From the IMG/VR virus record IMGVR_UViG_3300011429_000087, positions 100,552 to 164,551 of that record: a stretch of DNA of 64,000 nt; one strand, given 5' to 3'. The DNA is from a virus (Duplodnaviria > Caudoviricetes). The notes beneath the pieces were generated by a model. That model searched no databases. It was not told the origin of the DNA and worked only from the letters and a program-made list of their open reading frames with translations. Shown here piece by piece: positions 31,277 through 61,074 of this stretch (its first letter is position 1; each line of letters opens with the position of its first letter). Both the position numbers and the translations under genes were made by a program.

Positions 31277-31347
31277 TTCCGAGACTAGGACTCGAACCTA
31301 GATAGGCGACTTCAAGGGCCGCCGTCCTACCGTTAGACGATCTCGGA
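31277..31347 (-). tRNA. tRNA-Gln(TTG), C33 variant
   Basis: GCGGC-CCTTGAA-GTCGC. Confidence 0.85.
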
Positions 31348-32099
31348 TCAGTTTTCTCAATCTTTATCTTCTAGTAAAACACTAGGCTTATACTTTGCTA
31401 AAAGCCTTTGAAGCTCTCGACGTTCTTCCATTGTCTTATCCGCTTTAACCTTTTCACGGGCCTGTTTAGCACGAAACGACGCATTCTTCCTACGAAACAG
31501 TCGCCTCTCCATCTCCTTATCTGTTTCATCTCTAAAAGAGATGACATAGATAGTGTCTGCGTCTTCGCAATGATTCACTACCTTTATAATTGCGTCGTCG
31601 TATTGCGGACCAGCGAAGTCATCCAAGATGTATTTAAGATTTGCGATATACGCTCTAAGGGGCATTTTGTCATAAGCAATACCAGAGATATCTAGAGGCT
31701 CGCTGTTATCTCTAATTCTTTTTCTTTTAGCCATAATATATTTGTTCCTTCGGCCAACCAATAGTTTTCTGATGAGCTATAAATCCCTCTGAACTGTTGA
31801 ATCTGTGAGTAACGGTCCAGTAGCTATTTTTATTAACATCGTCCATTCTACAAATCACAACCGGGCCATGACCGTATTGACTGGCGGTAATGTCTATCGC
31901 CAAACCGTCATACTCTAGGAATGCGTGTTCGTTGTTGCAGACAATTGTTGCATAAATACCAATCTGTTTTAGGGCGTTATACAGCATTACCGAAGCAATC
32001 CCGCACATGCCACATAAATCCTCGTAAGGCCAACGCTCCTCGGCCCACTTACGGATCTTTTTAGCAACCCTTTCAATCTTGTTCACGGCGTAAGTCACG

Positions 32100-32498
32100 T
32101 TAATCCCACAAGTTTCCAAAATATTCGCAAAAGAGCTTCATGCCTTCTTTATGGTGTTTGTTGGCAGCTTCGTAGGCTTCTTTTCCTTCTAGGATCGTCT
32201 CATCCATATTAATAACAGCTTCGAAGGAAATTATCATTTTATCAAGAATCTCGTCCCATCTCTTTTCGCCAATCTTGCCGTCACCATCTACATGAAGTTC
32301 GCTTGGATAGCCGTGGCATATTTCTTTAAACCTTTTAAGTCTTGGGAGGATAAACTTGGCAATTGTATGGTCAAGATTCCAAAGTTCACTATCATCAAAT
32401 CCACGGCGACGACGCTGCCACCACCACTTAATCCTATTGGTTACGTGGTATGGTCGAATTCCAATCACTTTATGATAATAGTAGTAAAGACTTTCCAT
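32100..32498 (-). CDS. Conserved phage hypothetical protein
   Basis: RRGFDDSELWNLD..A.FILPRL..GYP..LF.EYF.NLWD. Confidence 0.6.
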   Translation of the reverse strand: MESLYYYYHKVIGIRPYHVTNRIKWWWQRRRRGFDDSELWNLDHTIAKFILPRLKRFKEICHGYPSELHVDGDGKIGEKRWDEILDKMIISFEAVINMDETILEGKEAYEAANKHHKEGMKLFCEYFGNLWD

Positions 32499-32528
32499 GT
32501 TTCACCGCATTTGATGTTCCTGCAAGAA

Positions 32529-32614
32529 TGGTGGTACGGGAAGGATTTGAACCTTCGAACCGACTAGGGACCAGATTTACAGTCTGGCGGTATTAGCCAC
32601 TCACCCATCGTACC
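32529..32614 (-). tRNA. tRNA-Tyr(GTA)
   Basis: CCAGA-CTGTAAA-TCTGG, long variable arm, CCA. Confidence 0.9.
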
Positions 32615-32883
32615 ACGTTAGTATTCGGCATTCTTTATACTTTTAATGACTGCCGTTTCCTGACGACCAATCCACTTCTTGGCAGCGTCGGCAGTCTTCC
32701 ATCTAAGATTCTCCAGAGAAAATTCATCAATAATATCTCCGTCACTTTCCTTCACTGTCCAGAGAATCTTATTATCCTCTAGAACCTGCGTTACTCTCCA
32801 TTGCAAGTGCGATCCGTCATCGTGATAGACAGACGAAGCACTGTAGATAGTATTATCGTTGTCATCAAAGTCTTTGTACCATC

Positions 32884-33225
32884 TCATCGCAAATACTCAT
32901 TTTCTAGATCGTCGGCAATCTCTTTAAAAGACTTGCCACCATCATTCATGTTGGCTAATTTACCTATATTGACATCTTCACCTAACCAACGTTCAACGGG
33001 AGGTGGCGGCATAGACATCGCTCGATTAAAAGTAACATGATTACCACAGTCTTTCTCGACATTAATTTGTACCCCATCCTTAATAGCTAACCGGCAGGCT
33101 ACGCCAAGACAACAATGAAAAGTTTGATTGCCCCTAACCACGCATAGCATTCCTTGTATCTGATGGTATTTACCGCCCCGCAGTGCGTCAACTAGCTTAC
33201 GAACATTCTTCTGATTTACAATCAT
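32884..33225 (-). CDS. Phage hypothetical protein, paralogue of 46940..47299
   Basis: ALR.GKYHQ..G.LC..HCCLGV.C..MND..F..IAD. Confidence 0.65.
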   Translation of the reverse strand: MIVNQKNVRKLVDALRGGKYHQIQGMLCVVRGNQTFHCCLGVACRLAIKDGVQINVEKDCGNHVTFNRAMSMPPPPVERWLGEDVNIGKLANMNDGGKSFKEIADDLENEYLR

Positions 33226-33648
33226 GGATTATTTCCAAATTTAGCCTTAAGCCGTTCGAACATTTTACGGTCGTGTTCAAGCGTCGCAGCTTCATTCCTT
33301 AACTTTTCAGCAGCAGCCTCTTCCGTCTTCCTTTTAGTTTCTTCCGCCTTCTTCTTTTGAATCAATTCAATCATTATCTTTATAGGATCTGGCTCTAGTA
33401 ATATTTCTAGTGGAATACGAATAGTGTCCCAGTATTCATCCGAACAACAATTACATGAACGCTCATAAATACGGATGTTGATACCACTTTGATCGTGGTC
33501 AATATCTTGAATACTAAGACGTTTATTATCTGTAATCTCTTTAACTTCTATCAGTTTTGTGGCAAGATTATAAATCTCTTCTTTGATATCAAAACTTTTC
33601 AGGTATTCTTCTTTAGTGAACATGATGCTTTACATCCTTTATTGTTAA

Positions 33649-33735
33649 TGGTGCCCAAGGAGGGACTTGCACCCTCACGCCATTTCTGGCACGGGATTTT
33701 GAATCCCGCTCGGCTGCTAATTACGACACTTGGGC
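33649..33735 (-). tRNA. tRNA-Leu(CAA)
   Basis: CGGGA-TTCAAAA-TCCCG, variable arm, CCA. Confidence 0.9.
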
Positions 33736-33794
33736 CTTTTGAATAGATAGAGCAAGCCACAAAGGAATTTCAGCACTTAGCCGACGCCCATCAG

Positions 33795-33822
33795 AGTATA
33801 CTCTTAAAAATCTCTTTGTCAA
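33795..33822 (-). promoter_or_regulatory. sigma70-type promoter TTGACA-N16-TATACT
   Basis: Direct match upstream of tRNA-Leu. Confidence 0.75.
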
Positions 33823-33832
33823 GGACGAAAAA

Positions 33833-33918
33833 TGGTGCCGTGGGTAGGATTTTACCTACATGGTAAGCAAGCTTACCGGCGAGTTCAACCCCGCTGCGTC
33901 TAATTCCGCCACCACGGC
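33833..33918 (-). ncRNA. Leu-type tRNA-like RNA with 6-nt anticodon loop and 6-nt T loop
   Basis: Perfect acceptor GCCGTGG/CCACGGC+ACCA; loop GTTGAA; T loop TAAAAT. Confidence 0.7.
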
Positions 33919-34534
33919 GAATCTATTTTAGCTTTACTCTCTGAGTAAGTCAATCGGGAAAAAAAGTCGTCGCTCACGCCATGCTATATTCCCGTCAGCC
34001 CCTTCGTTCCAACTATTGGGGACAACGTCCAGATATTTAATCTTAATGAAGTCATAAGAGTAATCTAGAATCTCTACCTCAAAAATCTTACGTGGATCTA
34101 GATATGCACCACCTATTAGGGCATCCGCACTACTGTAAATCTGTACTTTTGATCCTGTCGGATATTTGTTTTCCAATAATTCTCTTGAAAATGATTCTGG
34201 TGCAGACCTGACAGTGTGCGTGATATCACAGGCCACTAAACATACTAGAAGGAGCGATAGTAATGTTTTCATTAATTATTCCTAATTTGTAGTAATTGAA
34301 CAGCTTTACCATCAATATTAACTATAACATATTGTTGGTTAGTAACTTTATCCGTAATCAAAATAGTTTTTGCATCGGCAGTAGCAGTATTATGTTTTTC
34401 AATCACCACTGTAAATCTTTGATTCTCTGGATTGTTTGCTTTTATGGCGTTTATTAAACAATCTCCGCACGATACACATACAAACAACACGAATAACATA
34501 AGTTTTTTCATATACTTTTCTCCATAAATTAAAA

Positions 34535-34619
34535 TGGTCCCCAAGAGAGGATTCGAACCTGCACGCCCTTACGGGCAATAGCTTCTAAGGCTATCGCGGC
34601 TGCATTACGCCACTCCGGG
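34535..34619 (-). tRNA. tRNA-Leu(TAG)
   Basis: ATAGC-CTTAGAA-GCTAT, variable arm, CCA. Confidence 0.9.
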
Positions 34620-34645
34620 ATATGTTACTCCATAACTAAAAGAAA

Positions 34646-34721
34646 TGGCGGGCCGGTCAGGAGTCGAACCTAAACGAATCGTTTTGGAGACGATTATGCT
34701 ATCCAGTTACATCACCGACCC
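34646..34721 (-). tRNA. tRNA-Trp(CCA)
   Basis: ATCGT-CTCCAAA-ACGAT, G73, CCA. Confidence 0.9.
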
Positions 34722-34723
34722 AT

Positions 34724-34797
34724 TGGCTGGCACCCTTGGAATCGAACCAAGATGACCAAATTAACGGTTTGGCATAATACCATTATATGAGACGCCA
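34724..34797 (-). tRNA. tRNA-Asn(GTT), C33 variant
   Basis: CCAAA-CCGTTAA-TTTGG, G73, CCA. Confidence 0.85.
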
Positions 34798-35565
34798 AAA
34801 AGTTGAAGCCTCTTAGAAAGCCCCCTTTTCCACACTATTTCGGATCTTGCAAAACATATCGAGATACTGATCCACATGATCTGAATCGAAACAGTTAGGA
34901 TCTTGTCTCCAGCACCAGTTTGGAATAGTCTGTGGAATACGCCAACTATCACACAATAGGAGACGATTCAGTGTTGGAACAACCTGTGAAAGTTCAAGGA
35001 TACCAGCAATCATAAGGTCGGGCGTATCCTTTATGTCCCGGTGATAACTAACAGTGAAAACATTCTTATTGTCCGTCACAGCTTGCTCAAGACGCTCTGT
35101 CGCAATCAGCCGCCCAATCTTTCGAGAGGGCGAACTTTCCTCGGCTGACGCCCGTGAGATCCCGAAAGCAAGGTGTGGCACGTTTAGAGTCTGATCGCCA
35201 GCGGCCGGTCGGCCGACGATTCGACAAACGAGCGTAGCGAGGATGCGATTGCGATTACGTGTGCGAATGAAATAGGCACGAGTAGCATTCATTTTAAACT
35301 TCTCCATTTAATGGAAAACTTGTTTTGGGTTTTGCATTTAGGACAAACATACGATGGGTCGTCCTGTCCCTCTTTAATCTTCGCTAAGAATTCCTTTTCG
35401 CAGCGACCACACCATAACACTGTGACGCCGCGAACTAATTCAATCCTCATATCTTTATAGAACGGGTAAGTTGTCATTATTATGCCTTAAAATATTATTT
35501 TGTTTCGTGTCGAATTCACTTTTAGCGTATTTCATCTTATACAGGGTCAGATGGTTTCGTATTAA

Positions 35566-35640
35566 TGGAGCCTCTGGCCTAGAATCGAACTGGCGTCCCA
35601 ACTTTACAGGAGTTGAATATTACCACTATACTACAGAGGC
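35566..35640 (-). tRNA. tRNA-Thr(TGT), C33 variant
   Basis: CAACT-CCTGTAA-AGTTG, CCA. Confidence 0.85.
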
Positions 35641-36323
35641 AGTGTGCGTGTTGTCATAAAGATACTACAAATTTCAAATTTTGCAGTTTATCGTGTGCCG
35701 TTACATTTAATAATAAATTTTATCCTAATAAAAGAAAACCGTGTTGGACAGATAATGCTCTAATAGAAGCTATTAAAAATTCCAAATCTTTCCTTCAAGT
35801 ATGTCAAAAACTATATCCTAAGCCAGGAGGTAGAAATTATAAAACTATTCAACGTCATATTAAAAGACTAAACTTAGATATATCTCATTTTAATGAGTGT
35901 GTTCAAAAGATACCATTTTATTGTATTTATTGTGCAAAAGAATTAAATCGTAAAAAACGACAAAATCTTTATTGTTCTTTTTCTTGTCAACATCAATTTC
36001 AAAGAAGTGAATACATTAAGCGGTGGTTAGTCGGTCAAGAAACCGGCGGTACTCATCAAGTGTCACATCATATTCGTCGTTGGCTTTTTGAGCAACGTGG
36101 AGAACAATGCTGGCAATGCGGCTGGAATAAGAAACATGCGTCCGATGGTAGATGTCCGTTAGAAGTTGACCATATTGATGGTCACTACGCCAACAACCGA
36201 CCAGAAAACTTACGTCTTTTGTGTCCAAATTGTCACAGTTTAACTTCTACTTATAGGGCTCGTAACAAAGGTAATGGTCGTCATGTTCGCCGTCAACGTT
36301 ACGCTAATGGACAATCGTTTTGA
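35613..36323 (+). CDS. HNH endonuclease with Zn fingers, antisense to the tRNA array (true start probably just after the tRNA)
   Basis: CWQCGW..LEVDHIDG..NN..ENLRLLCPNCH. Confidence 0.9.
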   Translation: MNITTILQRQCACCHKDTTNFKFCSLSCAVTFNNKFYPNKRKPCWTDNALIEAIKNSKSFLQVCQKLYPKPGGRNYKTIQRHIKRLNLDISHFNECVQKIPFYCIYCAKELNRKKRQNLYCSFSCQHQFQRSEYIKRWLVGQETGGTHQVSHHIRRWLFEQRGEQCWQCGWNKKHASDGRCPLEVDHIDGHYANNRPENLRLLCPNCHSLTSTYRARNKGNGRHVRRQRYANGQSF

Positions 36324-36324
36324 A

Positions 36325-36401
36325 TGGTATTCCGGTAAGGACTCGAACCCTCAACCTTGGAGTTAGAAACTCCACGCTCTGGCCCGTTGAGCTACCGGAA
36401 C
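36325..36401 (-). tRNA. tRNA-Arg(TCT)
   Basis: TGGAG-TTTCTAA-CTCCA, CCA. Confidence 0.9.
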
Positions 36402-36406
36402 ATACT

Positions 36407-36943
36407 TTATTTCTTAAAAGCCTCTGCAAAGATATCTGCATCTTCCTGTAAAAAGAAGATAAAGGAGATTTGAAGATTATTGGTCTTGATAATTTCCTCA
36501 AGAGTATCTAGTGCGATCCGCACCTGATCTGCGGCGACTCGTTTAGGGAAACCATAAGCTCCCGTAGAAATCGCCGGAAAAACAAGTGTCTTACAGTTAT
36601 TGAGAATTGCTTTAAAAATGCTAGAGGAGTAAGCGTTACGAAGCAATAGATTTGCGTCTTGTTTGTCCTCATACTCGTCCCAAATTGGACCTACCGCGTG
36701 GATAATAAAAGACGCCGGAAGTCCGTGGCCCCGAGTAATCACGCACTCGCCCACATTACATCCATAAGCGTGTTCTGCCGTATCTCGCAGTCGTTCACAT
36801 TCTTCTAGAAGTCCTGGGCCAGCAGCTTGGTGAATAGCTCCGTTAACACCTCCACCACCTAAGACAGAAGAGTTGGCAGCATTTACGATGGCATCAACCT
36901 TGCACTTCGTGATGTCACCGACACGAATGTCTGGCTTAAACAT
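36407..36943 (-). CDS. Macrodomain protein (YmdB/MacroD-like ADP-ribose hydrolase)
   Basis: GDIT..DAIVNAAN..LGGGGV.GAIH.AAG, IIHAVGP, FPAISTGAYGFP. Confidence 0.95.
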   Translation of the reverse strand: MFKPDIRVGDITKCKVDAIVNAANSSVLGGGGVNGAIHQAAGPGLLEECERLRDTAEHAYGCNVGECVITRGHGLPASFIIHAVGPIWDEYEDKQDANLLLRNAYSSSIFKAILNNCKTLVFPAISTGAYGFPKRVAADQVRIALDTLEEIIKTNNLQISFIFFLQEDADIFAEAFKK

Positions 36944-37040
36944 TAACTAAATCCTTCCTGATAAACTCTTTATGCTGCTTTTCAGTCATTTTCTTGGTGC
37001 GTGACATATTTATACCTTAAAAATCCTTCGTGACGCCCCT

Positions 37041-37068
37041 ATTATACTCTACTTTCGCCGGGAGTCAA
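37041..37068 (-). promoter_or_regulatory. sigma70-type promoter TTGACT-N16-TATAAT
   Basis: Direct match. Confidence 0.75.
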
Positions 37069-39251
37069 GCGGGCAAATCTTTTTTATCGCGAAAAACGAT
37101 TCCGACCGGGAAACGTGGCAGATCGTCGTCGGTAAGATCAAAGTGTCTCACTGTCAATTGTCTTCCAATAAAGGACTTACGATTCTTAAACATCGCTTCT
37201 CGTTCTTCCATTGAAACTTTCATACTACATTCGAAAGTCTGCTCTGAGGTATTATTCTTACAAACCCATACAACTTTTCCAGCCATTTTACCTCTACCGT
37301 CGCGAGCGTCAGTAACTAAAAACTCTGAATCTTGGAATTTCTTAACCTTTAAAAGTTCTCTAGAGCGATAACCCCATAAGTATTTCCCCTCATGAAGTCG
37401 AATAATAGCCCCCTCATATCCTTCCTGAACAAAGACGTCATGAACGTCCCACATTTCTTTTTCAGAGGTAACATCTATAGTTGGGACTATCTTAATAAGA
37501 CCGCCAGTCCAGGCGGCTCGTTCGTATCCTTTTAAAAGCTTACGACGATTTTCCCAGTTGAGATCGTCAAATCCTGTCGACACTGGAATATCGTAGATGT
37601 GGTACTCGATCGTTTCGCTTTCAGGCTTAAATGACTTGCCCTTGGGGTCAGCAGACTTGGTGAGGGACGTAATTCTCTGGCAGGATTCGCCATGAATATA
37701 AAGTTCTCCATCTAATACACTATCCTTTGGGAGCCAATCTAAAGATGCCACAATATGTGGTATGTTCCAAGGCTTTCCTCCTCTGGAAGTGAGAGAGATT
37801 TCGTCTCCGTCCCAAGAGGCTAAAGCACGACAGTTATGAACAACGGTATTATTGGCAACATAATTATGATTTTTTTCTACTTCGATGTCATATTTCGTTG
37901 CTTTTGGCATTCTATGTGAACGCCTTACCTTAAAATCTATCCACTTAAACTCATCTTTTGCTTTATTGATATAATTATTCGTACTAAAATAGAACTTATA
38001 TTCTGCTCCATGACATTGCTTATTACGTAACTTATTTAAAATAAACAGAGTATCTTTTGTATCAAATGTTAAAAACTGTCCCGAGCACTTACTATTATTA
38101 ACTCTTTTATCAGTATAGATATTTGGTATACAGTTCCATACTATGTCAAAGTATTTTACAAACTCTTGGATCTGTTCTTTAGAATGTCCATGCGTACTGA
38201 TCGACAAGATCGGCGTGTCCCGGTTATTATTATTGTATGACAAACTACCGTCGTCACCAATCCATAATGATATGGCTTCTGGTGTTAGAAGCTTTTTCAA
38301 AGTCTTATATAAAACAAGTTTTCTTTTACCACACAAATCCGAATGTCCGGTAAAGTACCATAGTTTTATAGGAAAATTAGAATTTGTTAATGCGTCAGAT
38401 ACAAAACGAAAGCCTTGACTACCATACTCCGTGATAATTTCTGATACATTTCCTTTAATGTCTAAAGTCGTAATTTTGAAATTAAAATATGCCTTATTTG
38501 TATGTTGAAATACTACTCTATATGATTGTCCAGTCCCACGTTTTTCTATTACTATCATACTATCGCCAAGCAGCGTTCCAGCTATCAGGCTATTAAGATA
38601 GTCTGAATGTGTTTTAGTCTGAATCTTATCTTTCCCAGGTGCTAAATCTATAGCCTTTTTCCAGCCATTTTGTGTGAAAAATTTATGATCGCTTGTACAT
38701 TTAATATGTTTGCCATAAACTGGCACGATCTCTAACCATTCCTTATAATCTAATTCTCCATTATTAAACCAATTAATAACTGGCTGATATTCAAATATAC
38801 CACTTTGTTCATTAAGTGACAAAACATTTACTGGGAGTTTATTTTCAACAATTTCTTCTATTGTTAATTTTCCTTTATCGGTATCTATTAAAGTATTACG
38901 AAATAAACATCCATCTAATTTTGGCTGCACTGACGCGGGAAATTTAACCTTTCCGGGTTTAAAGTCATGTGCAAGCATAGGAAGATATAGGGACTCTTTG
39001 GCCCCTTCTGGCGTCTCAGAATACTTCCTTTCAACCTTATAAGTCCAAAGCGACTTGGCTTCTAACTTAGCCTGTTCCTCTGGAGAAGTCTCATTGCTAC
39101 GCCCAACGTTCTTACCTTCGGCAGTTTTACGTGATATTTGCATGACACCATGTACTTGCCCGTATTCGGTCACAATAACCGGACCTTCTGTCCAGACGGT
39201 CCACTGTCTGAGATCGCCGGACTTGGCTTTATGATATAATGTCGGCAACAT
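37065..39251 (-). CDS. ATP-dependent DNA ligase interrupted by an intein
   Basis: PMLA, QPKLDG|CR, LDGELY, YEGAIIR, LLKVK, PRFPV. Confidence 0.9.
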   Translation of the reverse strand: MLPTLYHKAKSGDLRQWTVWTEGPVIVTEYGQVHGVMQISRKTAEGKNVGRSNETSPEEQAKLEAKSLWTYKVERKYSETPEGAKESLYLPMLAHDFKPGKVKFPASVQPKLDGCLFRNTLIDTDKGKLTIEEIVENKLPVNVLSLNEQSGIFEYQPVINWFNNGELDYKEWLEIVPVYGKHIKCTSDHKFFTQNGWKKAIDLAPGKDKIQTKTHSDYLNSLIAGTLLGDSMIVIEKRGTGQSYRVVFQHTNKAYFNFKITTLDIKGNVSEIITEYGSQGFRFVSDALTNSNFPIKLWYFTGHSDLCGKRKLVLYKTLKKLLTPEAISLWIGDDGSLSYNNNNRDTPILSISTHGHSKEQIQEFVKYFDIVWNCIPNIYTDKRVNNSKCSGQFLTFDTKDTLFILNKLRNKQCHGAEYKFYFSTNNYINKAKDEFKWIDFKVRRSHRMPKATKYDIEVEKNHNYVANNTVVHNCRALASWDGDEISLTSRGGKPWNIPHIVASLDWLPKDSVLDGELYIHGESCQRITSLTKSADPKGKSFKPESETIEYHIYDIPVSTGFDDLNWENRRKLLKGYERAAWTGGLIKIVPTIDVTSEKEMWDVHDVFVQEGYEGAIIRLHEGKYLWGYRSRELLKVKKFQDSEFLVTDARDGRGKMAGKVVWVCKNNTSEQTFECSMKVSMEEREAMFKNRKSFIGRQLTVRHFDLTDDDLPRFPVGIVFRDKKDLPA
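37833..38909 (-). mobile_element. Intein (359 aa) with LAGLIDADG homing endonuclease
   Basis: Starts CLF, block B CTSDHKF, LIAGTLLGDS and WIGDDGS, ends VVHN|C. Confidence 0.9.
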
Positions 39252-39831
39252 ATTTATTTTTCCAAGGATGTTTTGCCATTCTTTCATATTTGCATCGTCT
39301 ACAGTGACGATAGCCATGTTTATCTAACCATGTATTCTTTTCGTCAAATATATGCCCATTATTACAATGAGTTTTTCGTAAATTTTGTGCGGGAGGACTA
39401 TTGCCACGCAAGACATTTTCTGTGTTTGGAACTGGCTCAAGATGTAATATATTAACGCAATTTCTATTTTTACATAAATGGTCTATTACTAACTCTTTTT
39501 TGAGAACGCCATTGAAATATTCCCAAGCATAACGATGTGCTCGGCGTCGTTTATTATTGATAGATATGACGCCATAACCTTCTCTAGAAGTTTTTCCTGT
39601 CCAAATCCAGCATGGCGTTTCATTAAAACTATGTTCTGATATCATGACTCGACGCATGATTTTGTCTATATTACTTTTTACTCTTGGATTTTTTAAGCCA
39701 AGCCGAATAGACGCCTGTTGTACCGAGGAAAGCGAACGATTTAATATCCTGGCTATTTCTGCATGAGTAAATTTTCCACACAGATTTTGTAATATTTCTT
39801 TCTCATCTTCTGACCACTTATTATCACCCAT
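39229..39831 (-). CDS. HNH homing endonuclease with N-terminal HTH
   Basis: CWIW..GYG..AHR..IDHLCKN..CVN..HLEPV. Confidence 0.9.
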   Translation of the reverse strand: MGDNKWSEDEKEILQNLCGKFTHAEIARILNRSLSSVQQASIRLGLKNPRVKSNIDKIMRRVMISEHSFNETPCWIWTGKTSREGYGVISINNKRRRAHRYAWEYFNGVLKKELVIDHLCKNRNCVNILHLEPVPNTENVLRGNSPPAQNLRKTHCNNGHIFDEKNTWLDKHGYRHCRRCKYERMAKHPWKNKYVADIIS

Positions 39832-40069
39832 CTTGACGCTTTCGCTTTCTAGATAAATATAGTGTTGCACCACCAGTTAATAATAAATAAATACTAATGG
39901 GCTCGGGCACTGGAGCCTGAAAGCAATTGCCGCCGTCCCCGCCCTCTATAGGCTCGGTGTGGCCCGGAGCCTCCAAGGCTTGGGGATGAACACGCCCCTC
40001 TTTATAACAGCCCCCCAGGAAAAGAAGTGCTAGAGCAATTCCACTTTTCTGGTATAGTTTATTGTCCAA
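39824..40069 (-). CDS. Mini lipoprotein with C-terminal PEP-CTERM sorting signal
   Basis: AGGAGA SD before TTG; lipobox-like LFLGGC; VPEP + TM + RKRKR. Confidence 0.75.
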   Translation of the reverse strand: MDNKLYQKSGIALALLFLGGCYKEGRVHPQALEAPGHTEPIEGGDGGNCFQAPVPEPISIYLLLTGGATLYLSRKRKRQDG

Positions 40070-40449
40070 GTTCGCGTCTCCTGATCGAATGATGCAATCG
40101 GCTTGTCTGTAATGCCACATTCTAGAAAATAGATATGTCTGCTTTCGTCAATACGACGAACACTGATAATGCAATTATCCCCCTTTTCTCCCGTACATTC
40201 TATCCTATCATTTACTAGGTAGCCTTTGCTACCTAATTCATGATCTCTTAGTTCTGAAATCTGATCTTCTAGTATATTTTCTGAAAAGATATAATGTTGA
40301 GGTTCCTCCACCTGTGGCGGCGGCTCTAGTTTCTGAGTGCCGACTATAGGTTTGACTTCATTCTGCGTGTAGCCGTGTGAAACTAAAAACATCATAGCTG
40401 GAATTACTAGAATTGCAAGTATGAAAAGCGTTCCTCTAACAATACGCAT
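40030..40449 (-). CDS. Membrane-anchored hypothetical protein
   Basis: N-terminal TM segment. Confidence 0.55.
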   Translation of the reverse strand: MRIVRGTLFILAILVIPAMMFLVSHGYTQNEVKPIVGTQKLEPPPQVEEPQHYIFSENILEDQISELRDHELGSKGYLVNDRIECTGEKGDNCIISVRRIDESRHIYFLECGITDKPIASFDQETRTWTINYTRKVELL

Positions 40450-51388: not shown

Positions 51389-51867
51389 ATATGTTTCCAG
51401 GTTTTCCTGTGTTTGATGTTGAAGATTGTTAGCCAGTAGACTTTGAACTTCGCAGCTATAATATCCGTTTTTTCACCTTTGTCAAGTAAATCTCGAATTT
51501 TAAGAACTTGTTGCTCGTTTAGTTTGGCACACCCGTTGCGAGAACCACGGCTTACGCCCTTTCCTCCTCCGCCATGCCTTCCTTTATTGACCATATCTAT
51601 AGTATTATCTTGATAAGTTCCTAAAAATAAGTGATCTGGCCTGACGCATGGAGGGTTATCACATTTATGACAAACGTTCATGCCCGTTGGGATTGGGCCA
51701 AAATGTATTATCCAAGATGCTCTGTGGGCTCTTATATTACGACGATTTTCGTCTGTAAAACCTCCATAACCATCTTTATCTTTACTACCAGTCCACAACC
51801 AGCAAGAACCAGTTTTGTCAACGTGTTCCCAAAATCGCACAGCTAATGGACGTTTCTTTGGTGCCAT
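51385..51867 (-). CDS. HNH homing endonuclease
   Basis: CWLW..GYG..AHR..VCHKCDNPPCVRPDHL. Confidence 0.9.
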   Translation of the reverse strand: MAPKKRPLAVRFWEHVDKTGSCWLWTGSKDKDGYGGFTDENRRNIRAHRASWIIHFGPIPTGMNVCHKCDNPPCVRPDHLFLGTYQDNTIDMVNKGRHGGGGKGVSRGSRNGCAKLNEQQVLKIRDLLDKGEKTDIIAAKFKVYWLTIFNIKHRKTWKHI

Positions 51868-51876
51868 ATTAAAATG

Positions 51877-51950
51877 AATGGATAGAGAGATTCGAACTCT
51901 CACCGTTTGATTGGAAGTCAAACATGCTAACCGTTAAACACCATATCCAC
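51877..51950 (-). tRNA. tRNA-Gly(TCC)
   Basis: TTTGA-CTTCCAA-TCAAA, U73. Confidence 0.9.
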
Positions 51951-52584
51951 ATTATAGGATACCATCCACCTTGTCATCTAAATACTTCAGTCCCTTTTCA
52001 GTAATAGAATAACTGGCTTCACCAGTCTTCTCTTCAAAGTGCATTTCTATCATGCCTTGGTCGTATAAGTCGCTTAGAATTAAATCTATTCTAATTTTCT
52101 CCATTTCTACTGCGACATCTTCTGCTGATACTAATTCTTTATCTGATAGATTCCATAAAGAACTCATAAGAATCCATTCAGAATATTCACCCTTATCCCG
52201 ATTGGCAGGGTTTCCCGCCAAATCGTGTGATTTAGAACATTTCTTTAGAGGTTTAAGGTTTTCTTTTATGATATGGTACATTCTAGATTCTTAGGAGGAA
52301 ACTTAATCTTTCCAAGGACACACCAATCAAACACAAAGTCTAGCTGTGACTGAGTTAGTTCGTTATTCGTTGAGTGCCATCTACCCACAGATAATTTAAT
52401 CCAGCCATTCTTTTCTAAGAAATGCTCTGGATCTTCCTGTGCCGCCCTTGATTGCTTTTTTAGAGGATAAAGATCCTCAATGATTTTGTCTGCCTCTTCA
52501 CAGTGTCCTAATTCCTCGACGACAATAAACTTACCGTCTGGTGACAGCCACCCATTTTGTTGCAGTTTCTTTTTCATGTTAAAA

Positions 52585-52805
52585 GACGCGGTTTGATAAC
52601 AGGTTGACGACTCTGAATCCCTGATACTAGTAGTTACACCGCAAGGTCGCCACTAGGATGTCCCGTTGTCTCCCAAGTTTATCATTCCCGGGTGGGTGGC
52701 TAGCCGCTGCTTTATAATATACTACAAGTTTGATGCAGCAAACATCTTGTAGCGTTGAGGGTTTCTGCCTTCTATACACCCACAGATTGCCCAATTCCTC
52801 GGGCG
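52585..52805 (-). ncRNA. Candidate structured ncRNA or long 5' leader
   Basis: ORF-free, follows promoter 52812-52839, several stems. Confidence 0.45.
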
Positions 52806-52811
52806 TTGTTT

Positions 52812-52839
52812 ATTATACGCTCTAAACTTAAAAAGTCAA
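52812..52839 (-). promoter_or_regulatory. sigma70-type promoter TTGACT-N16-TATAAT
   Basis: Direct match. Confidence 0.75.
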
Positions 52840-55331
52840 CAGGAAAATTAATTCTCGCTAGGCTCGGTGTGCGTCGATTTAGAGGCTTCCAGCTTTTTAA
52901 TCCTCTCTTCTAACATGCCAATTATAGCTAAAAATCTCTCATTTTGATCTACTATAGATTGCATAGCCTGATTATGTAAGCTTATAGCAACATGAATGGT
53001 TTTCATAACATTTTCATGCTCAGTAAATATAGTGGCCGCATTATAAAGCACTAAATATATGTGGATGAATGCCGCCCGAATCTCTTCCGGGGTCATTAAT
53101 TCCGTACTCAGTTCTGGCGGTTCATTAGAGACTTCTACGACCTGAGTAACAATCCCAACATATTCACGATCAGGCCACTGACAAAGCTTTCCGGCCTTGT
53201 CATCGGTTATGTTGGTTACTTTAACTTGCTTACCCGACTCTGTTAGATAGACGGTGTAACCGAATGCTGCCGCAGCTTTCTTAGAGAACCATCCGTGATG
53301 TTTCAAGCGTTCCGTCATTTAAGAGCCCCCCTTACCGCATCTACCATATCCTTATGGCGTTTTACGAACGCCTCGAAAGATTCATCCTTTCGTCGATAAG
53401 TTGTAACGGTCCACGGTTCACCGGGATGGTTAGGGTCTTGAATCGTGGTAGAAATAGTCTGGTCGGGCTGATCTGTAGTGCCAGCCCCAAACGACACTAC
53501 GGCCACCTGGGCGTATCCATTAGTGGTGGATTGATCCACGCCGAAGGTAAACAAAGCAAGGATAATGGAGGCAAGTAAATGCATATGTCACTATTTCCTT
53601 TATAAGAGATGTTTCTTCATCGTCAGGATGGCCGCAGTAATAAGTGTAGCAATCCATAAAAGGTTGAGAACTATCATCAGCCAGAACAACTTGGTCATTC
53701 GATCCTCATTAAGTGCCACCAGAATTCTCCTTTTCGGGATCAGCTATTAAACTTACAAAGAACCACAAAATAACTAAAACAACATAGATAACAGCTAGCG
53801 GAGAGGCTAGCTTATAAAGACCGAAGCCAATTAAAATTGCCACACCGATTTCTACGTAGAAAGGGATTTTCATGATTACGTCCCTGGCGGAATAAACCTA
53901 CCGAGTGGTACTAAATCATTGCACTTAAAATTAAAACAGTCTTTTAGCTGCTTCTGGACCTTACTAGTACTTAAAGCACGGTTAGTCATGACTACCGCAT
54001 CTACGGCGTCACCATTAAGATTGGTGCCATGAATGGTTGGCACCTTTTTAGAAAGTACATCTGACCACCAGCCATAAAACTTCTTAGGTACTTTTACCAT
54101 TGTTAGTTTTCCTTACATCTCTTATGAGGATTGATGTGGACGACATAAAAACAAACGATCCGGCAACTGCAATAGCAGTTAAGTGGGCCGGATATTCTAC
54201 TTAATGCATAATCATCATTGTCAGGGCTTTTAAGAAGCCGACAACAATAATGGTGCCTATAAAGTATCGCAGGAATTTGTCTTGATTTTTAGGGGTCATG
54301 TTATCCTTCGATTTTATATACAAACTTCCAGTAGTTTCATTGGCTAACGCCTTAATCTCTTCTGCCAGTTCTAGCATTTCTTCTTTTGTCTAGAATTTTA
54401 CCCACTTTATTACCCTTTAATGGAGGTGTTAGATTTCCTTACAGTGCCTATATACTTAACTTATTCCTTTGGAGGCTCTACTTCATAGACCCAATTTAGA
54501 GGGCCCCCCACTATAGCAATAACACAGAAAATTAGGATGGCTGGTATCCAGTAGGCGACAAATGTAGCGAAACCGCCTAAGAACTTAACGAAACGGTCGG
54601 TTGATTTTGATATCATTTTAATAGAGGGAAATGTCGATTCCCGTGCTCTTTTTCAGGGGTCTTACTTTAACAAGTCCCAATGGAATACTTACTAGATAGA
54701 ATAGGTGGAACAGGATGAATATAGGGAGATAAAGGATAGCAACGAGCATTATGGATATTAGTTGTGCCATTACGTTATTCCTTATTAACTCTCTTCTTTT
54801 AAGAGGATCTTTAATTCCCCAAGCCTATACTCTATACGATTAGCTTCATTCCAATGACCCTTAGAACAAGCGTCGTGGTAGAGGAATTCGAGGTGGGCGG
54901 TTTCGGATAAGATTAACTCTTTAAGCGTTAGCATTTTAATTTACCCCACCTTACCCCATTTCGCCACACCCTCCGACGGGAACTCTCTCACTTAAATTTA
55001 ACTTCTCTGAGCCAAATACCACCTATTCCCCAGGGAACTCTGTACTATTTCTAGTTTTCCTTCCTTTAAGTCTGATACTAGGGAGACAATTTGAAGATCC
55101 TTTAAAGAGGAAGATAAATCCGCCAGATTAGTTATATTAGTAAAGGCCCCGGACCGGGTTTCCTGCTCCATTATATCCTGTATCCTCTGAATGAGATTTT
55201 TCATCTTTAGGTCATCCTAGTTCTTATCTTTAAGGGACCGACGGAGTTCCATCTGAAGGTCGGAAATCCGACAGTTTGCTATGGTGCCGAGCACCACGGC
55301 CATTATAATGAACCACCACACCATGAACATT

Positions 55332-55973
55332 TTAAGTATCCAGTGAAGAGAGGAATCCGATTTTCCGCCCCCATTCTACTTGCTTTCTGGCCCATGTCAA
55401 GTAGGAATTTCGTTCGTGTTCGTGGTAGGTTATCCAGACGGGATATAAAATCCTGTGAAGGGGAGAATACTTTTCGGATAGAAAGGCTTTTTCACTAGCT
55501 AAGTCTGGAGCAAATAACCACTCCCTAAGTTTACTTTTAAGTCTTTCCTGGGAAGGTATAAGATAGTAGGATTCAGTAAGTTTACTGCCAGCATGACTTG
55601 GCGTTAAAGTACCGGGGGTCGTAATAGTTGGACCCCTATAAATGTCGGCACAATAAATTGGTACAATACAGTCCCACATAATAGAGAAGAGTCTGAGTCC
55701 TGACGGTTTAAGCCCCGTGATTTTCAGGACTGCCACCACTCTCCTTACTGTATTCCAGGCCCTCTTAATATGTTCCATCTGATAAGGGATAAGCCAATCC
55801 ATCTGGCCTTGTTGGTGAGGCGAGAATTCGGGAGTTGTTAAAAACTTAACAGAATTCTTGGCGGGAAGACGTTGATCCTCATAATAAGAATAAGGATGGA
55901 TATAAGTTCGTTCTCCGCCCTCTACTATAGTGAGGAGTGGTTTTGAATGATTCTTTTGATATTTAGATGACAT
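55332..55973 (-). CDS. Hypothetical protein
   Basis: 213-aa ORF near the start of the leftward block. Confidence 0.5.
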   Translation of the reverse strand: MSSKYQKNHSKPLLTIVEGGERTYIHPYSYYEDQRLPAKNSVKFLTTPEFSPHQQGQMDWLIPYQMEHIKRAWNTVRRVVAVLKITGLKPSGLRLFSIMWDCIVPIYCADIYRGPTITTPGTLTPSHAGSKLTESYYLIPSQERLKSKLREWLFAPDLASEKAFLSEKYSPLHRILYPVWITYHEHERNSYLTWARKQVEWGRKIGFLSSLDT

Positions 55974-56315
55974 GGGGTGATTTTAGAAGAACTCCAGAGA
56001 TTATGGGAGCATGGGGTGGATTTATCTTCCTCTTAAGTGGAATCCTAAAAGACTTAGCTTTTCCCTTACTATTATGCCTGGAATTCAGGAGGGAACGAAA
56101 GACGCTTACCAGGAAACCTAATCTCATCAATCCTCAGGATCGCCTTACTTAAGCCGAGGGGCGACGCCGGATGTGCGGGGTCCGCCCCGTGGCCGGGCAC
56201 GGGCAAAAAGTGCATGGGGGTGGGGTCGCACCACCAACGGCAAGGTTTTCCCCAAACCGGTCCGAGGGACTCTCTTGCCTATCTGGCCCACATTTAGAGC
56301 CACCCGTGCATAGAT

Positions 56316-56553
56316 AGGATACCACGTTTCCGTGGCGTGTCAAGTCGGTTTCCCTTTTCAGGGATCGTTGACGCCCAGAGTATACGTCAAGAACCCCACC
56401 TGTCAAACTGAAAAATAAAAAAGATTTAACCTTGACAAATTCGGCGGCGTGTGTTATGCTTCGTGGTTCGGAGGATGAGACGGCGTGCCGATCCGGCACA
56501 AAAGAATTTCCCCGATTTCTACTTGCATTCTTCAGGAATCGCGGTACTATACT
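56316..56553. promoter_or_regulatory. Divergent promoter cluster
   Basis: Leftward TTGACA-N16-TATCCT (56316-56343) and TTGACA-N16-TATACT (56379-56406); rightward TTGACA-N17-TATGCT (56432-56460) and TTGCAT-N16-TACTAT (56523-56550). Confidence 0.75.
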
Positions 56554-56581
56554 GACGTTCCGAAACACAAGGGAGAAACCG

Positions 56582-57535
56582 ATGAGTGCAGAAGTCGAAA
56601 CGGATCGTGGGGCCTTCACTGAGAAGGCCGCGTGGTGGGATACCGATGGTGTCCGGGTCATCAATGAACGTCTTCCGATGGAGGACTTTCTCGTCAAGGC
56701 CCGTATGTCCTACAATGTCACCAAAGAACAAGCAACCCGTTTCAATAAGGCGGGAGTGCAGGTCGATGTACCGAATCAGTTTAATCTGATTCGTGACGAT
56801 GACGAGACGGTTGTGTCACCGTCTACGGTTACGAAGAAGTACGAAGTTCGTATCCCTCGCGATCTCGCGATGGTCGTCGATCCGATCGTGCAGGGCGGAC
56901 TCGGTATCTATGATACCGCCTTCACGCTATACGGTGGACAGTCGGAAGTCGTGACGGTTCGTCTATGTGACATCAAGTCAAAGCCCGGAAACGACTCAAG
57001 CGATTGGACCTATTACCTTGTGTGCCAGAACTATCACGGTACTGGTAAGGCACGTTTCAAGATCGCCGGAAATCGTGTCGTCTGTCACAATACGGTTACT
57101 GCCGCGTTCGCTGGCGGGGCTGATCTTTCAATGGTTCACACTAAGAGTATCGTGCAGAAGTTCGCCGATGCTCCCAAAGTCTGGACGGCTGCCGCTACTG
57201 CCATTGCCGCACACTGTGACAAGCTGGCAAAGCTGGACAAGGTTGTAAACGTCCCGGAGACGATCGACGAACTGTTGGCGATCGACGACGACGCGACGAC
57301 TCAGCAGAAGAACCGTCGGGATCGTCTGGTCGCTGCCGCTTGTATGCCGATGATGGGAACGCACGGTAGGACTCTCTACGACATCTTCAATGCCGTCACC
57401 TACGACACGACGCACAACGCGGGCGGCAAGGCGGGGAAGACGATGACGGGCCGAATGGAATCTATTTTGGATGGAACGCGAGGAGACTTTGAAGAGACGA
57501 TGACGAGTAAGCTGTTTGCTCTCGCCGGAGTCTAA
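56582..57535 (+). CDS. DUF932-family phage/plasmid protein
   Basis: AW, R.D...V...Y, YL...N.H.G.G, RVVCHNT, HT, GRT.Y..FNAVT...H. Confidence 0.8.
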   Translation: MSAEVETDRGAFTEKAAWWDTDGVRVINERLPMEDFLVKARMSYNVTKEQATRFNKAGVQVDVPNQFNLIRDDDETVVSPSTVTKKYEVRIPRDLAMVVDPIVQGGLGIYDTAFTLYGGQSEVVTVRLCDIKSKPGNDSSDWTYYLVCQNYHGTGKARFKIAGNRVVCHNTVTAAFAGGADLSMVHTKSIVQKFADAPKVWTAAATAIAAHCDKLAKLDKVVNVPETIDELLAIDDDATTQQKNRRDRLVAAACMPMMGTHGRTLYDIFNAVTYDTTHNAGGKAGKTMTGRMESILDGTRGDFEETMTSKLFALAGV

Positions 57536-57549
57536 AAAGAAAGCAGAAC

Positions 57550-57574
57550 GTGGGGCCGGGAAACCCGGCCCCAC
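57550..57574 (+). terminator. GC-rich hairpin after the DUF932 gene
   Basis: GTGGGGCCGGG-AAA-CCCGGCCCCAC; no clear U tract. Confidence 0.5.
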
Positions 57575-57591
57575 TGGGGGACTAAAAAGAC

Positions 57592-57993
57592 GTGCCACGC
57601 AAAGATAAAACAAAACATCAGGAGTATAGTTTAGTACGTTATCATCAAAGACGTGCTAACGCGATTGAGTTTCTTGGTGGGCAGTGTGTCAAATGTAAAT
57701 CGTTAGATAGGTTAGAATTTGACCATATAAATCCCGCCACAAAGTCATTTCACGTCAACGATAAAATTTCTGGCGATTTAGATACTCTTATGCCAGAATT
57801 GCTTAAGTGTCAACTTTTATGCCATAGTTGCCATATGCAAAAAACTATTCTTGAGCGTGGAGATAAACCGTCCCAACATGGGTCAACTACTATGTATGGG
57901 CACGGCTGTAGGTGTCAATCTTGTAAAGCGGCAAATGCTACCTATTGGCAAAAATATAAAGCCAAAAAAAGACTTGACGCCACTAAAAAGTAG
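57592..57993 (+). CDS. HNH endonuclease
   Basis: LGGQCVKC..LEFDHINP..K..C.LLCHSCH; GCRC..C tail. Confidence 0.85.
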   Translation: MPRKDKTKHQEYSLVRYHQRRANAIEFLGGQCVKCKSLDRLEFDHINPATKSFHVNDKISGDLDTLMPELLKCQLLCHSCHMQKTILERGDKPSQHGSTTMYGHGCRCQSCKAANATYWQKYKAKKRLDATKK

Positions 57994-58198
57994 AGTATAC
58001 TAGCGTCATGGGTTACTATTATTTGCCGGGCGGAAACCACGGCGACCCGATGCGGGCCCTAAAGCTTCTGGTGAAGTTTCTTCTATGGGCAAGCCTGATA
58101 GGATTTATCGTCCTGTTGGTTCGAAAGATCACCGGAAAGATTCCTTGACTTCCGCGAGAGGCGGGGTAAAGTAAGGTAACTTCAAAAGGATCAAGACG

Positions 58199-58516
58199 AT
58201 GGACGAGACGACTAAGGCAGTCAACTACCTCCGCTCCAATGCCTGGGACTACCGCTCGCGGTTCGGCCATGATCGCAATACGTTCAGATACATCAGTGCC
58301 ATCAAGCAGGTTCGGGAAGATTTGGGGCTGACGTTGAGGGTGGCGAAGGATGCGATGGATCAGTGGCGGGACGCTGGTTTTCCGTCCGAGTTCTCCAATG
58401 CCATGCCAAATATCACTTTGTCCGGGGCCAAGCTGATTATGCAGAATCTTCTGCTTCGCGGCCTGCCCGGCCTGACCTCCCTGGAAAGGGATGCCATCCG
58501 TATCCTCGCTGATTGA
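58199..58516 (+). CDS. Protein with ribosomal bL12 (L7/L12) CTD-like motif
   Basis: ISAIKQVREDLGLTLRVAKDAMD; own promoter at 58145-58172. Confidence 0.55.
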   Translation: MDETTKAVNYLRSNAWDYRSRFGHDRNTFRYISAIKQVREDLGLTLRVAKDAMDQWRDAGFPSEFSNAMPNITLSGAKLIMQNLLLRGLPGLTSLERDAIRILAD

Positions 58517-58531
58517 CACCACAACAGGACG

Positions 58532-58585
58532 AAGACCGTCTCGACAATAAACTCCGAGTGGAGCTACGCCGGGGCGGTCTTTTTT
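58532..58585 (+). terminator. Intrinsic terminator
   Basis: AAGACCGTCTCG...CGGGGCGGTCTT followed by a T run. Confidence 0.6.
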
Positions 58586-58816
58586 AATTTGACAAACTTT
58601 TTTGATATGATAGACTTTGGGGGTCAACGCTTCCGGGACTTTAGGGCTGTTCTCTCCCCAGTTCTTTTCAGGCCACTTCCCGATTCCTCCTCGGGTCGTT
58701 CGGCTCTGACTTCAGAATACCTCAGAACTGGAAAGACGCAACCCGCAAAATAAAAATAAAAACTAGCTTGATTCCTGTAAGTCTTAGGCTATACTATTGG
58801 CACAAGGAAACCATAA

Positions 58817-59350
58817 ATGACACGCCACGAACTTCTGACGCTGTGCGAGACGATCCGGGGCGAGCTTCTTCCAGGATTCCCGGAAATTCAGACGGTACGG
58901 TTTTCGATCAGCAACCGCTATACGCGAAGCCTGGGGCGTGCTCGTTACTGCACGGGGGAAGTGATCCTGTCGGGCCCGGCCTACGTTGCCGTATCCCTGA
59001 ACGATCACCTTGCACCTGATACCGTCCGTCACGAACTAGCCCACATAGTGGCGTGGCGGCGTCACGCGGTGGCGGGGCACGGGCATACGTGGCAACGCCT
59101 TGCCGTGTCGATGGGATGCACGGGCGACCGCTGCACGCTAGGTGTGAAGCTTGGGAATGAAGTTACGCTGTCCTGTGGGGCCTGTGGGCATCAGACGGAG
59201 GAACGGGAAAACACTCTCAGAAGGTGGCACCGAAAGGGATCGCGTGCTATGTGCCCCAAGTGCCTTAAGGGCCTGCCGTTCCCCTGGGAAAGGTCCGTCA
59301 TGATGGCGGCGGCAGAGACGCCGAAAAGAATTTTGATTCAGAGGGGTTGA
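58817..59350 (+). CDS. SprT-like Zn metalloprotease with C-terminal Zn ribbon
   Basis: TRSLGRA, HELAH, GHG..W, CGAC..CPKC. Confidence 0.85.
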   Translation: MTRHELLTLCETIRGELLPGFPEIQTVRFSISNRYTRSLGRARYCTGEVILSGPAYVAVSLNDHLAPDTVRHELAHIVAWRRHAVAGHGHTWQRLAVSMGCTGDRCTLGVKLGNEVTLSCGACGHQTEERENTLRRWHRKGSRAMCPKCLKGLPFPWERSVMMAAAETPKRILIQRG

Positions 59351-59374
59351 CATCCTGAAAAGGTAGGGTACAGT
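59347..59374 (+). promoter_or_regulatory. sigma70-type promoter TTGACA-N16-TACAGT
   Basis: Direct match upstream of an ORF-free structured region. Confidence 0.7.
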
Positions 59375-59379
59375 ATGAA

Positions 59380-59630
59380 CGCCGGGACGGTTCGCTACCG
59401 CCGGTTGAGCGAAGCCCAACAAGCCTAGCACCCTGAAGCGGGTAGCTTCAATGCCCATACCGTTCCGAGGCTAAGAGGGACGGCGGGGCCACGTATGCCC
59501 CGTTAACAAAACGAGCCGCAAGGTTCGGTAGCTAGCATCACTACCCTTTTAAGGTAGGACGGAATCCCCATGGCTTTTTCATAGCTATGCCGTTAGGTGT
59601 GAAAAGGGCCCCGAGAGGGATCTCGGGGCC
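59380..59630 (+). ncRNA. Candidate ~250-nt multi-hairpin ncRNA with Lys- and Glu-like anticodon stem-loops
   Basis: At least 8 stems, G:U pairs valid on + strand, bounded by promoter and a 10-bp terminal hairpin. Confidence 0.65.
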
Positions 59631-59853
59631 TCTGCTATTTCTGGTTGACACCTAGCAAAGCTATGCTATACTCTGGTAACTCAAGGGAGACAGTCGTGCC
59701 CGAATCCATTCAGAAGATCATCCAGGATAGTAAGCTCAGTCCCGCTCAACTTCTGCACGAAGTTTGGACGAACCTTCGACTGCTCGATTCTGTCAACGGC
59801 ACGAACTATGCCAAACAGATTTCTAAAGAGCTTGAGAAATGGAGGGTCGACAG

Positions 59854-60072
59854 ATGAAGTGGACAAAGCGACAGCCCAAGGTTAGCGGCTACTACTGGCT
59901 GAAGCAACCGCAACGCGACGGGGGCTACTACATTCCTACCGTGGTCAAAGTCAAGATTAGTGACGATCCAGAATGGCCGGAGGCGACTTATTCCTCCTGC
60001 AATTATGAGTTGGACTCCGACTTTCATCCTGCGGCCCTTTGGGCCGGGCCGATTCCGCCCCCGAGGGACTAA
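59854..60072 (+). CDS. Small phage protein, paralogue of 21417..21638
   Basis: MKWTKRQPKVSGYYW...WAGPIPPP; GGAGG SD. Confidence 0.6.
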   Translation: MKWTKRQPKVSGYYWLKQPQRDGGYYIPTVVKVKISDDPEWPEATYSSCNYELDSDFHPAALWAGPIPPPRD

Positions 60073-60301
60073 CATGGAACACAGAATCAAAACGAGCCGG
60101 GGCGAAATCCTTATCAAGGATTCGCACATCTTCGAGATCGTCGTTCCCGATAACGAGCAGCTTGTCGTGACTTTCAGGGAATCAAATCTTTCCTTTAGGG
60201 TTGGCGGACTTCCTGGGGACGCCAAAGCTACGCCCCAGTGCGGAAGGGATTTTCAGGTTGACAAGTCCCAGTAAGGTGGCATAATGGGGCTTCGCCTCAA
60301 C

Positions 60302-60377
60302 GGCCCTGTCGTCCAACGGCCAGTGACGCCGCCCTTTCAAGGCGGAGACGAGAGTTCGACCCTCTCCAGGGCTACCA
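60302..60377 (+). tRNA. tRNA-Glu(TTC)
   Basis: CCGCC-CTTTCAA-GGCGG, CCA; own promoter at 60258-60285. Confidence 0.9.
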
Positions 60378-61000
60378 CTTGACACCTTTAAGAACTGAGG
60401 ATATACTACTCTCAACTTCAAAGGGGAACCAAATGGACCTGTTCAAAAAGATCCGCGAAATCCAGGATGAGAAATGTCTGCGGGATGAGGATATGGTTCT
60501 CCTCTTGTGCATCAATCTTCAGATTTTGGACTCGACGTTCCTAACGAGGCATGGGGAAAAAATCGTGGCAGAGCTTGCGTGTCCAAAAAGCTGAGTTATA
60601 GTTATCTCAACTTCAAGGGAGCTAACTTATGTGCCGCGACTGGACCGGGGACCACGAAATCCGAGCCGACGAGGAAGACGACGTTAAGGGCTGCGTCGAG
60701 TGCGGTCAGAAGGATTGCCCGGGTGACTGCGATCCTTACGCTCATTTGCCGTTCCTTCGGAAGTATGAGCCGACGGACGAAGAACTTGAAGAGATGAACC
60801 GCGTGTGGCAAAATGCACACCGGGGATGTGTGGGGAACTAAAATGCCACAATCTCTTTTCGACTACATCCGTGAGTATCAAGACTCGCACGATTGTAGTG
60901 ATGACGACATGATTGAGATTCTTTGCGATTGCATCGAAGTTGTTCAGAATGCCGATCCTAAGTGGGAAAATCTGACTGGACTTATAAAGGAATGTCTTTC

Positions 61001-61074
61001 GGGCTCTTAGCTTAGTGGCAAAGCTACCGGCCTTTAACCGGCAGACCGGGGTTCGATTCCCTGATAGCCCACCA
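61001..61074 (+). tRNA. tRNA-Lys(TTT), C33 variant
   Basis: ACCGG-CCTTTAA-CCGGC, A73, CCA. Confidence 0.85.

Follow-up and report, generated by a model that had tools for sequence, protein, structure and literature searches.

Four transfer RNA (tRNA) genes of a large, uncultured T4-like phage, contained in the IMG/VR virus record IMGVR_UViG_3300011429_000087 (Duplodnaviria; Caudoviricetes), encode cytosine at position 33 of the anticodon loop. Almost every tRNA has uridine at this position, just 5' of the anticodon, where it forms the U-turn. The stretch analysed here, hereafter the window, comprises 64,000 nucleotides and is the last 64 kb (positions 100,552 to 164,551) of the 164,551-bp record, which has 41.6% G+C. 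ARAGORN and Infernal agree on a loop of the form C32-C33-NNN-A37-A38 in 4 of the 17 tRNA genes of the phage, namely those for Gln(UUG), Asn(GUU), Thr(UGU) and Lys(UUU). These genes are intact, and C33 is enriched among the tRNAs of this phage relative to other viruses. Tentatively, and with a probability that we place somewhat below even, they may be working tRNA variants that were selected because C33 alters recognition by a host enzyme acting on the anticodon loop.

Three of the four genes lie on the minus strand within the main tRNA array (28403..36401), which runs from Lys(CUU) to Arg(UCU) and contains 13 genes called by ARAGORN, ten of them with U33. tRNA-Gln(UUG) (31277..31347) has C33 at base 31316, in the loop CCUUGAA enclosed by the stem GCGGC/GUCGC, and is without an encoded CCA. 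In tRNA-Asn(GUU) (34724..34797) C33 is base 34766, the loop CCGUUAA and the stem CCAAA/UUUGG, while in tRNA-Thr(UGU) (35566..35640) it is base 35609, with the loop CCUGUAA, a perfect 5-bp anticodon stem (CAACU/AGUUG) and an irregular T stem. The fourth gene, tRNA-Lys(UUU), is located apart on the plus strand (61001..61074), with C33 at base 61032, the loop CCUUUAA and the stem ACCGG/CCGGC, formed by four Watson-Crick pairs and A27.C43. All 17 tRNA genes detected by ARAGORN in the whole genome fall inside the window. An earlier note, made from the letters of this DNA, had reported the four C33 loops in a register fixed by stem pairing, with U33 kept elsewhere; each part held, as both programs place C32-C33 in 7-base loops, the anticodon stems enclose all four loops in the ARAGORN check, and the other 13 of 13 tRNAs have U33. 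An assembly error was ruled out as the source of C33, since an independent metagenome contig from a different ENA sample (L245, 99.9% identical over 2.4 kb) holds an identical Asn gene including C33.

Apart from the missing U33 of the U-turn, the four genes have the features of canonical tRNAs, with a cloverleaf, a 7-nt anticodon loop and Infernal scores above the gathering score of 29 of the Rfam model RF00005. Their scores (Gln 56.2, Asn 46.3, Thr 47.6 and Lys 56.7 bits) are mid-range against the 35–72 bits that this phage's U33 tRNAs reach. These mid-range scores, together with compensatory stem changes in the Asn gene relative to its orthologue in the related contig L243, indicate that the genes are real, intact and not decayed. 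That they are instead decaying or non-functional copies, or decoys rather than decoders, is unlikely. In favour of such decay are the lack of an encoded CCA in Gln(UUG), two pairs of the Thr T stem that depart from Watson-Crick pairing, the C6.U67 and A27.C43 pairs of Lys, and a clearly degenerate tRNA-like remnant that adjoins the Gln gene. It is opposed by Rfam scores at the level of the U33 tRNAs, by intact anticodon stems, by the compensatory evolution of the Asn gene and its G73 discriminator base, typical of tRNA-Asn, and by the recurrence of the identical Asn gene in an independent sample. In addition, each C33 tRNA is the only one with its anticodon in the phage, and the codons AAA, AAY, ACA and CAA that the four read make up about 13% of phage codons.

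The remnant itself (31209–31274, minus strand) is located between two Gln genes, scores 33 bits with Rfam and was missed by ARAGORN; it combines an Ile(GAU)-like loop, CUGAUAC, with a truncated T arm. An intact tRNA-Ile(GAU) is found in the same part of the array in the related contigs L243 and L244, in the latter directly after a Gln gene. A tRNA-Ile(UAU) called by ARAGORN at 30646–30722 (minus strand) is absent from the Rfam tRNA hits of the region up to E = 1.

Four to five related syntenic clusters were recovered through the RNA ligase adjoining the array, the small deaminase and the open reading frame (ORF) between Asn and Thr. The tRNAs seen in them number 14 in a 169-kb JGI contig (L240+L243), 13 in the NCBI contig L244, one in L246 and six each in L001 and L242, and every one has U33. 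Judged from these clusters, C33 is therefore a derived and recent state, private to the lineage of the window; the survey of related phages suggested by the earlier note thus revealed no conservation of C33 and supports its derived status. The Asn orthologue of L243 is 84% identical and combines U33 with the compensatory stem changes, and that of L244 also has U33. Thr(UGU) genes with U33 occupy the syntenic site in L243, L244 and L246; their bodies are very different, and they are too divergent for a point mutation to be called. The genes flanking Gln(UUG) in L001/L242 are 97–100% identical to the window, yet the segment with Gln(UUG) is only 87% identical and its positional Gln homologue has U33, so that U33 and C33 alleles of this tRNA coexist among near-identical phages. 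An unrelated 276-kb viral contig of IMG/VR (L005) carries the same anticodon arm as the C33 Lys in a different Lys body, and the Lys(UUU) gene of the window may have arrived with C33 already present. For the C33 alleles of Asn, Thr and Gln, no other IMG/VR tRNA has an identical anticodon arm, and the arms were matched only by chance outside tRNAs.

The background of C33 was estimated from three IMG/VR pattern scans that selected loci by a single tRNA each (U33 Lys, C33 Lys and C33 Thr, respectively) and together yielded at least about 350 of them; tRNAs in these loci were counted by ARAGORN without the isoacceptor used for ascertainment. C33 was present in 18/643 viral tRNAs (2.8%) in the U33 Lys scan, 19/630 in the C33 Lys scan and 33/633 in the C33 Thr scan, giving a range of 2.8–5.2% and a pooled value of 70/1906 (3.7%). 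The 4 of 17 found here exceed this background, with a binomial P of 0.001 against the first scan and about 0.003 against the pooled counts. C33 is also overdispersed per locus, as 3 of 71 tRNA-rich viral loci carry at least four C33 tRNAs where about 0.3 would be expected; the phage thus ranks in the top few per cent for C33 and is unusual, though not unique. Outside the ascertained isoacceptor of each scan, C33 was observed in 0/78 Thr(UGU), 0/79 Gln(UUG) and 5/92 Asn(GUU) genes, and IMG/VR as a whole holds at least 71 C33 Lys(UUU) genes, in 29 sequence clusters, and at least 80 C33 Thr(UGU) genes. The C33 Lys pattern matched 0 of 401 Pseudomonadota genomes, and the U33 Lys pattern 47 of 61. 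Among the phage tRNAs of the IMG/VR samples, C33 reached its highest share in the Val tRNAs (UAC, GAC and CAC). No report on C33 in phage tRNAs was found in the collection of papers that was searched.

Of the 17 tRNAs, 8 have an anticodon with two or more U, and this group includes all four C33 tRNAs (70/2380, P = 0.029). These four are also phage-encoded copies of isoacceptors that defence nucleases target. Three of them are the targets of the PARIS nuclease AriB, tRNA-Lys(UUU), Thr(UGU) and Asn(GUU) (PMC12409363), a coincidence of 14/2380 that was computed post hoc. Three (Lys, Gln and Thr) are likewise among the four preferred substrates of LshCas13a, which are tRNA-Lys, Glu, Gln and Thr (PMC11042736), an overlap noticed after the fact.

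Published work documents several effects of the base at position 33. PrrC cleaves 3' of U33, and RloC cuts there too (PMC2610378), while Cas13b6 excises U33 from tRNA-Val(GAC), yielding a U>p messenger, according to a 2026 preprint (PMC13692257). E. coli TsaBCDE is unable to install t6A37 on a U33C tRNA (PMC8887486), E. coli TGT requires a UGU sequence as cited in PMC1635277, and t6A is cited in PMC12409363 as a positive determinant for PrrC. Set against the absence of protection from two nucleases considered below, the TsaBCDE and TGT findings leave lost host modifications of the loop as the best-documented effect of C33. Direct resistance to enzymes that cut at U33 is plausible.

If the four-fold C33 is adaptive, U33 would have been recently replaced by C in functional phage tRNAs, and the change kept by selection along one of two routes. 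In the direct route, a loop nuclease that reads or cuts at U33 would work less well on C33; PrrC-, RloC- or Cas13-type HEPN enzymes are candidates, as is an AriB like that of PARIS. In the indirect route, C33 would keep host enzymes from adding t6A37 (Lys, Asn and Thr) and queuosine (Asn), modifications of a kind that some nucleases use as positive determinants. By either route the phage would keep decoding AAA, AAY, ACA and CAA while host tRNAs are disabled. The claim of the earlier note that the same substitution in four tRNAs indicates selection is plausible in the light of the non-random excess, the derived state, the cloverleaves kept with compensatory changes and the restriction to U-rich anticodons. 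Its proposal of nuclease evasion agrees with the preference of AriB, Cas13a and PrrC for such anticodons and gains no support from the published substitution tests or the mapped AriB determinants.

A number of observations weigh against selection by an anticodon-loop enzyme. Colicin E5 cleaves a U33C substrate normally (PMC1635277) and gamma-toxin is indifferent to U33C (PMC2275089), so that no case of a nuclease blocked by this change is known from the published U33C tests, which concern these two enzymes. The determinants mapped for AriB are U16, U39 and A41, and Gln(UUG) is not cut by it (PMC12409363). Position 33 is thus not among them; at position 39, Lys and Thr differ from the E. coli targets and Asn does not. 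Within the phage, U33 is retained in Glu(UUC), one of the targets that Cas13a prefers, and in three t6A-type tRNAs with two-U anticodons, Lys(CUU), Ile(UAU) and Arg(UCU); sister phages do well with U33. Across IMG/VR, no link between C33 and U-rich anticodons was found (2.6% for two-U against 4.5% for one-U anticodons), and the four-tRNA combination seen here does not recur in other phages that have C33 Lys or C33 Thr. A C33 set common to phages was accordingly rejected, the loci chosen for C33 Lys or C33 Thr being without C33 in the other three isoacceptors. Finally, a cellular control, in which genomes of bacteria and archaea were scanned with the same ascertainment as the viral loci, gave C33 in 8/262 tRNAs (3.1%), as high as the viral 18/643, both from small numbers. 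Six of these eight lie in long tRNA arrays of Acidobacteriota metagenome-assembled genomes (MAGs), and without arrays the count is 2/123 (1.6%).

The contigs of these Acidobacteriota MAGs (L303, L353 and L256) carry arrays of 14–30 tRNAs in 3–5 kb, with one to three C33 genes each. The other two cellular C33 tRNAs are chromosomal tRNA-Glu(UUC) genes of two Sulfurimonas MAGs (L247:3372–3447 and L283:6279–6354) with an A32-C33 loop, so that in one lineage at least, Sulfurimonas, C33 is part of ordinary cellular tRNA operons.

The main alternative is that C33 represents tolerated, near-neutral variation with no adaptive role, which we consider quite possible, if rather doubtful. U33 would then matter less than its conservation implies, accessory tRNAs of phages would be more weakly constrained than those of the host, and some few lineages would gather C33 through drift or recombination of tRNA alleles. 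In favour of this account, C33 is conserved in no relative, Gln(UUG) alleles of both kinds coexist in near-identical phages, and C33 is scattered over many phage isoacceptors with no consistent set. The roughly 3% of C33 in cellular loci, mainly in tRNA arrays and also in the Sulfurimonas tRNA-Glu, the stem mismatches in the Lys and Thr genes and the published indifference of some loop-reading enzymes to U33C point the same way. Near-neutrality accounts less well for four changes at the most conserved loop position in 17 genes, given the binomial P values above, or for the overdispersion per locus. Nor does mutation bias favour T-to-C changes, because the genome is AT-rich, and the structures are otherwise maintained by compensatory changes, with the substitutions confined to U-rich anticodons (P = 0.03).

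A further alternative, raised in the earlier note, is that C33 is edited to U33 after transcription, for example by a 112-aa deaminase encoded about 2 kb from the array (26155–26493, minus strand). The protein has the HAE and PCxxC motifs and a CDA fold according to a structure model (pLDDT 89) and fold search, and is distinct from a 165-aa dCMP-deaminase-like gene product at 1787–2284. In favour of editing are the place of this minimal HAE...PCxxC deaminase within an RNA-repair-type block, its continued linkage to the RNA ligase in relatives and the TadA label that JGI gives to one homologue. Its homologues, however, adjoin the RNA ligase equally in L240/L243, where all tRNAs have U33, so that the deaminase does not track C33 or co-occur specifically with a genomic C. 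The best structural matches are dCMP/cytidine deaminases (TM about 0.6), with TadA ranking lower, and being generic for the CDA superfamily they point to no particular substrate. We know of no system in which a tRNA is edited from C33 to U33. C-to-U editing is consequently unsupported and very improbable as an explanation, and the specific case in which the phage's own deaminase converts C33 to U33 in the four tRNAs is more improbable still; if it held, C-to-U editing of a tRNA would be new to phages and bacteria, and such editing at position 33 new altogether, and precursor and mature tRNAs would differ in their sensitivity to host enzymes.

The RNA-repair-type block (21793..28383, minus strand) adjoins the tRNA array and was annotated with PHROGs and Pfam. 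Besides the deaminase it encodes, all on the minus strand, an Rnl1-like ligase (21793–22911), an HD protein (23440–24138), an AAA_33 kinase-like protein (25172–25642), an HNH protein (26813–27391) and an RNA ligase of PF09414 (27388–28383). A Macro-domain protein (36407..36943, minus strand; PF01661, 131 bits) is located at the other end of the array, beside tRNA-Arg(UCU), and has the same place in L243 and L244, while NADAR and HD_4 proteins are added to the arrays of relatives. Small ORFs within the array had no informative Pfam match. The presence of two RNA ligases and of kinase-like, HD and Macro-domain proteins beside the array fits a phage lineage that is under pressure on its RNA and invests in countering RNA damage, a context that does not identify the attacker. 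The gene content of the window is that of a large T4-like phage, including rIIA, an Rnl1/gp63-like RNA ligase, NAMPT and an ATP-dependent DNA ligase gene split by a LAGLIDADG element. BLAST against phages and plasmids found no close cultured phage, and the host was not identified by these searches, by tRNA similarity or through the G+C-rich island described below.

Phage T4 repairs PrrC-cut tRNA-Lys by means of Pnkp and Rnl1. The phage of the window resembles it in that its tRNAs lie beside genes for two RNA ligases, one of them Rnl1-like, and for a kinase-like protein. It differs in that repairing cut tRNAs and changing U33 would each answer the same attack separately; a complete Pnkp, with kinase and phosphatase, was not identified among its annotated genes. 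Phage T5 neutralises AriB, the PARIS nuclease, with its own tRNA-Lys(UUU), Thr(UGU) and Asn(GUU) (PMC11464382; PMC12409363). The window shares with T5 phage-encoded copies of the same three isoacceptors and changes in and near the anticodon arm, with C39/G41 in Lys and A39 in Thr against U39/A41 in the E. coli targets of AriB. T5 escape, in contrast, maps to U39A, A41C and U16C and not to position 33, and the C33 set includes Gln(UUG), which is not an AriB target, while its Asn keeps the U36-A-A-U39 motif. Nuclease-insensitive phage tRNAs have also been proposed for cluster C1 mycobacteriophages facing VapC and other enzymes (van den Berg et al., 2023, PMC10264068). In outline the idea is the same, namely anticodon-loop substitutions relative to the host at sites read by tRNases, although that work does not mention position 33 and its cases have a known host and known cleavage sites. 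A natural C33 in a functional tRNA is found in the cytoplasmic initiator tRNA-Met of multicellular eukaryotes, where it is an anti-determinant for the t6A enzymes of bacteria and of yeast (PMC8887486); that is a single species, whereas the window tRNAs are four bacterial-type elongators.

At the genome end, an island of 52% G+C holds the C33 Lys(UUU) gene together with the U33 Glu(UUC) gene, the only two plus-strand tRNAs of the genome. The island, which spans window positions 56000–64000 and genome positions 1–4000, has 47–52% G+C against 41.6% for the genome and contains small ORFs (DUF932, SprT-like); its appearance is that of an early region or of one gained by horizontal transfer. The Glu and Lys tRNAs have an ORF-free structured RNA on either side, at 59380–59630 and 61075–61280 (both plus strand; fold z −3.5 and −4.6). 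One of these RNAs contains the hairpin CUACC-CUUUUAA-GGUAG, identical to a canonical U33 Lys anticodon arm, and the other a 15-bp stem with an ACUUUAA cap. As 5-bp hairpins with these loops also arise by chance elsewhere in the genome, a decoy role of these RNAs is only a lead.

Should C33 protect phage tRNAs from loop nucleases, or from the modifications that license them, it would represent a one-base route to a tRNA that is invisible to host immunity, and position 33 would join the known escape sites of phage tRNAs. The sister and near-identical phages supply natural U33/C33 allele pairs, as in Gln(UUG), on which this could be tested directly.

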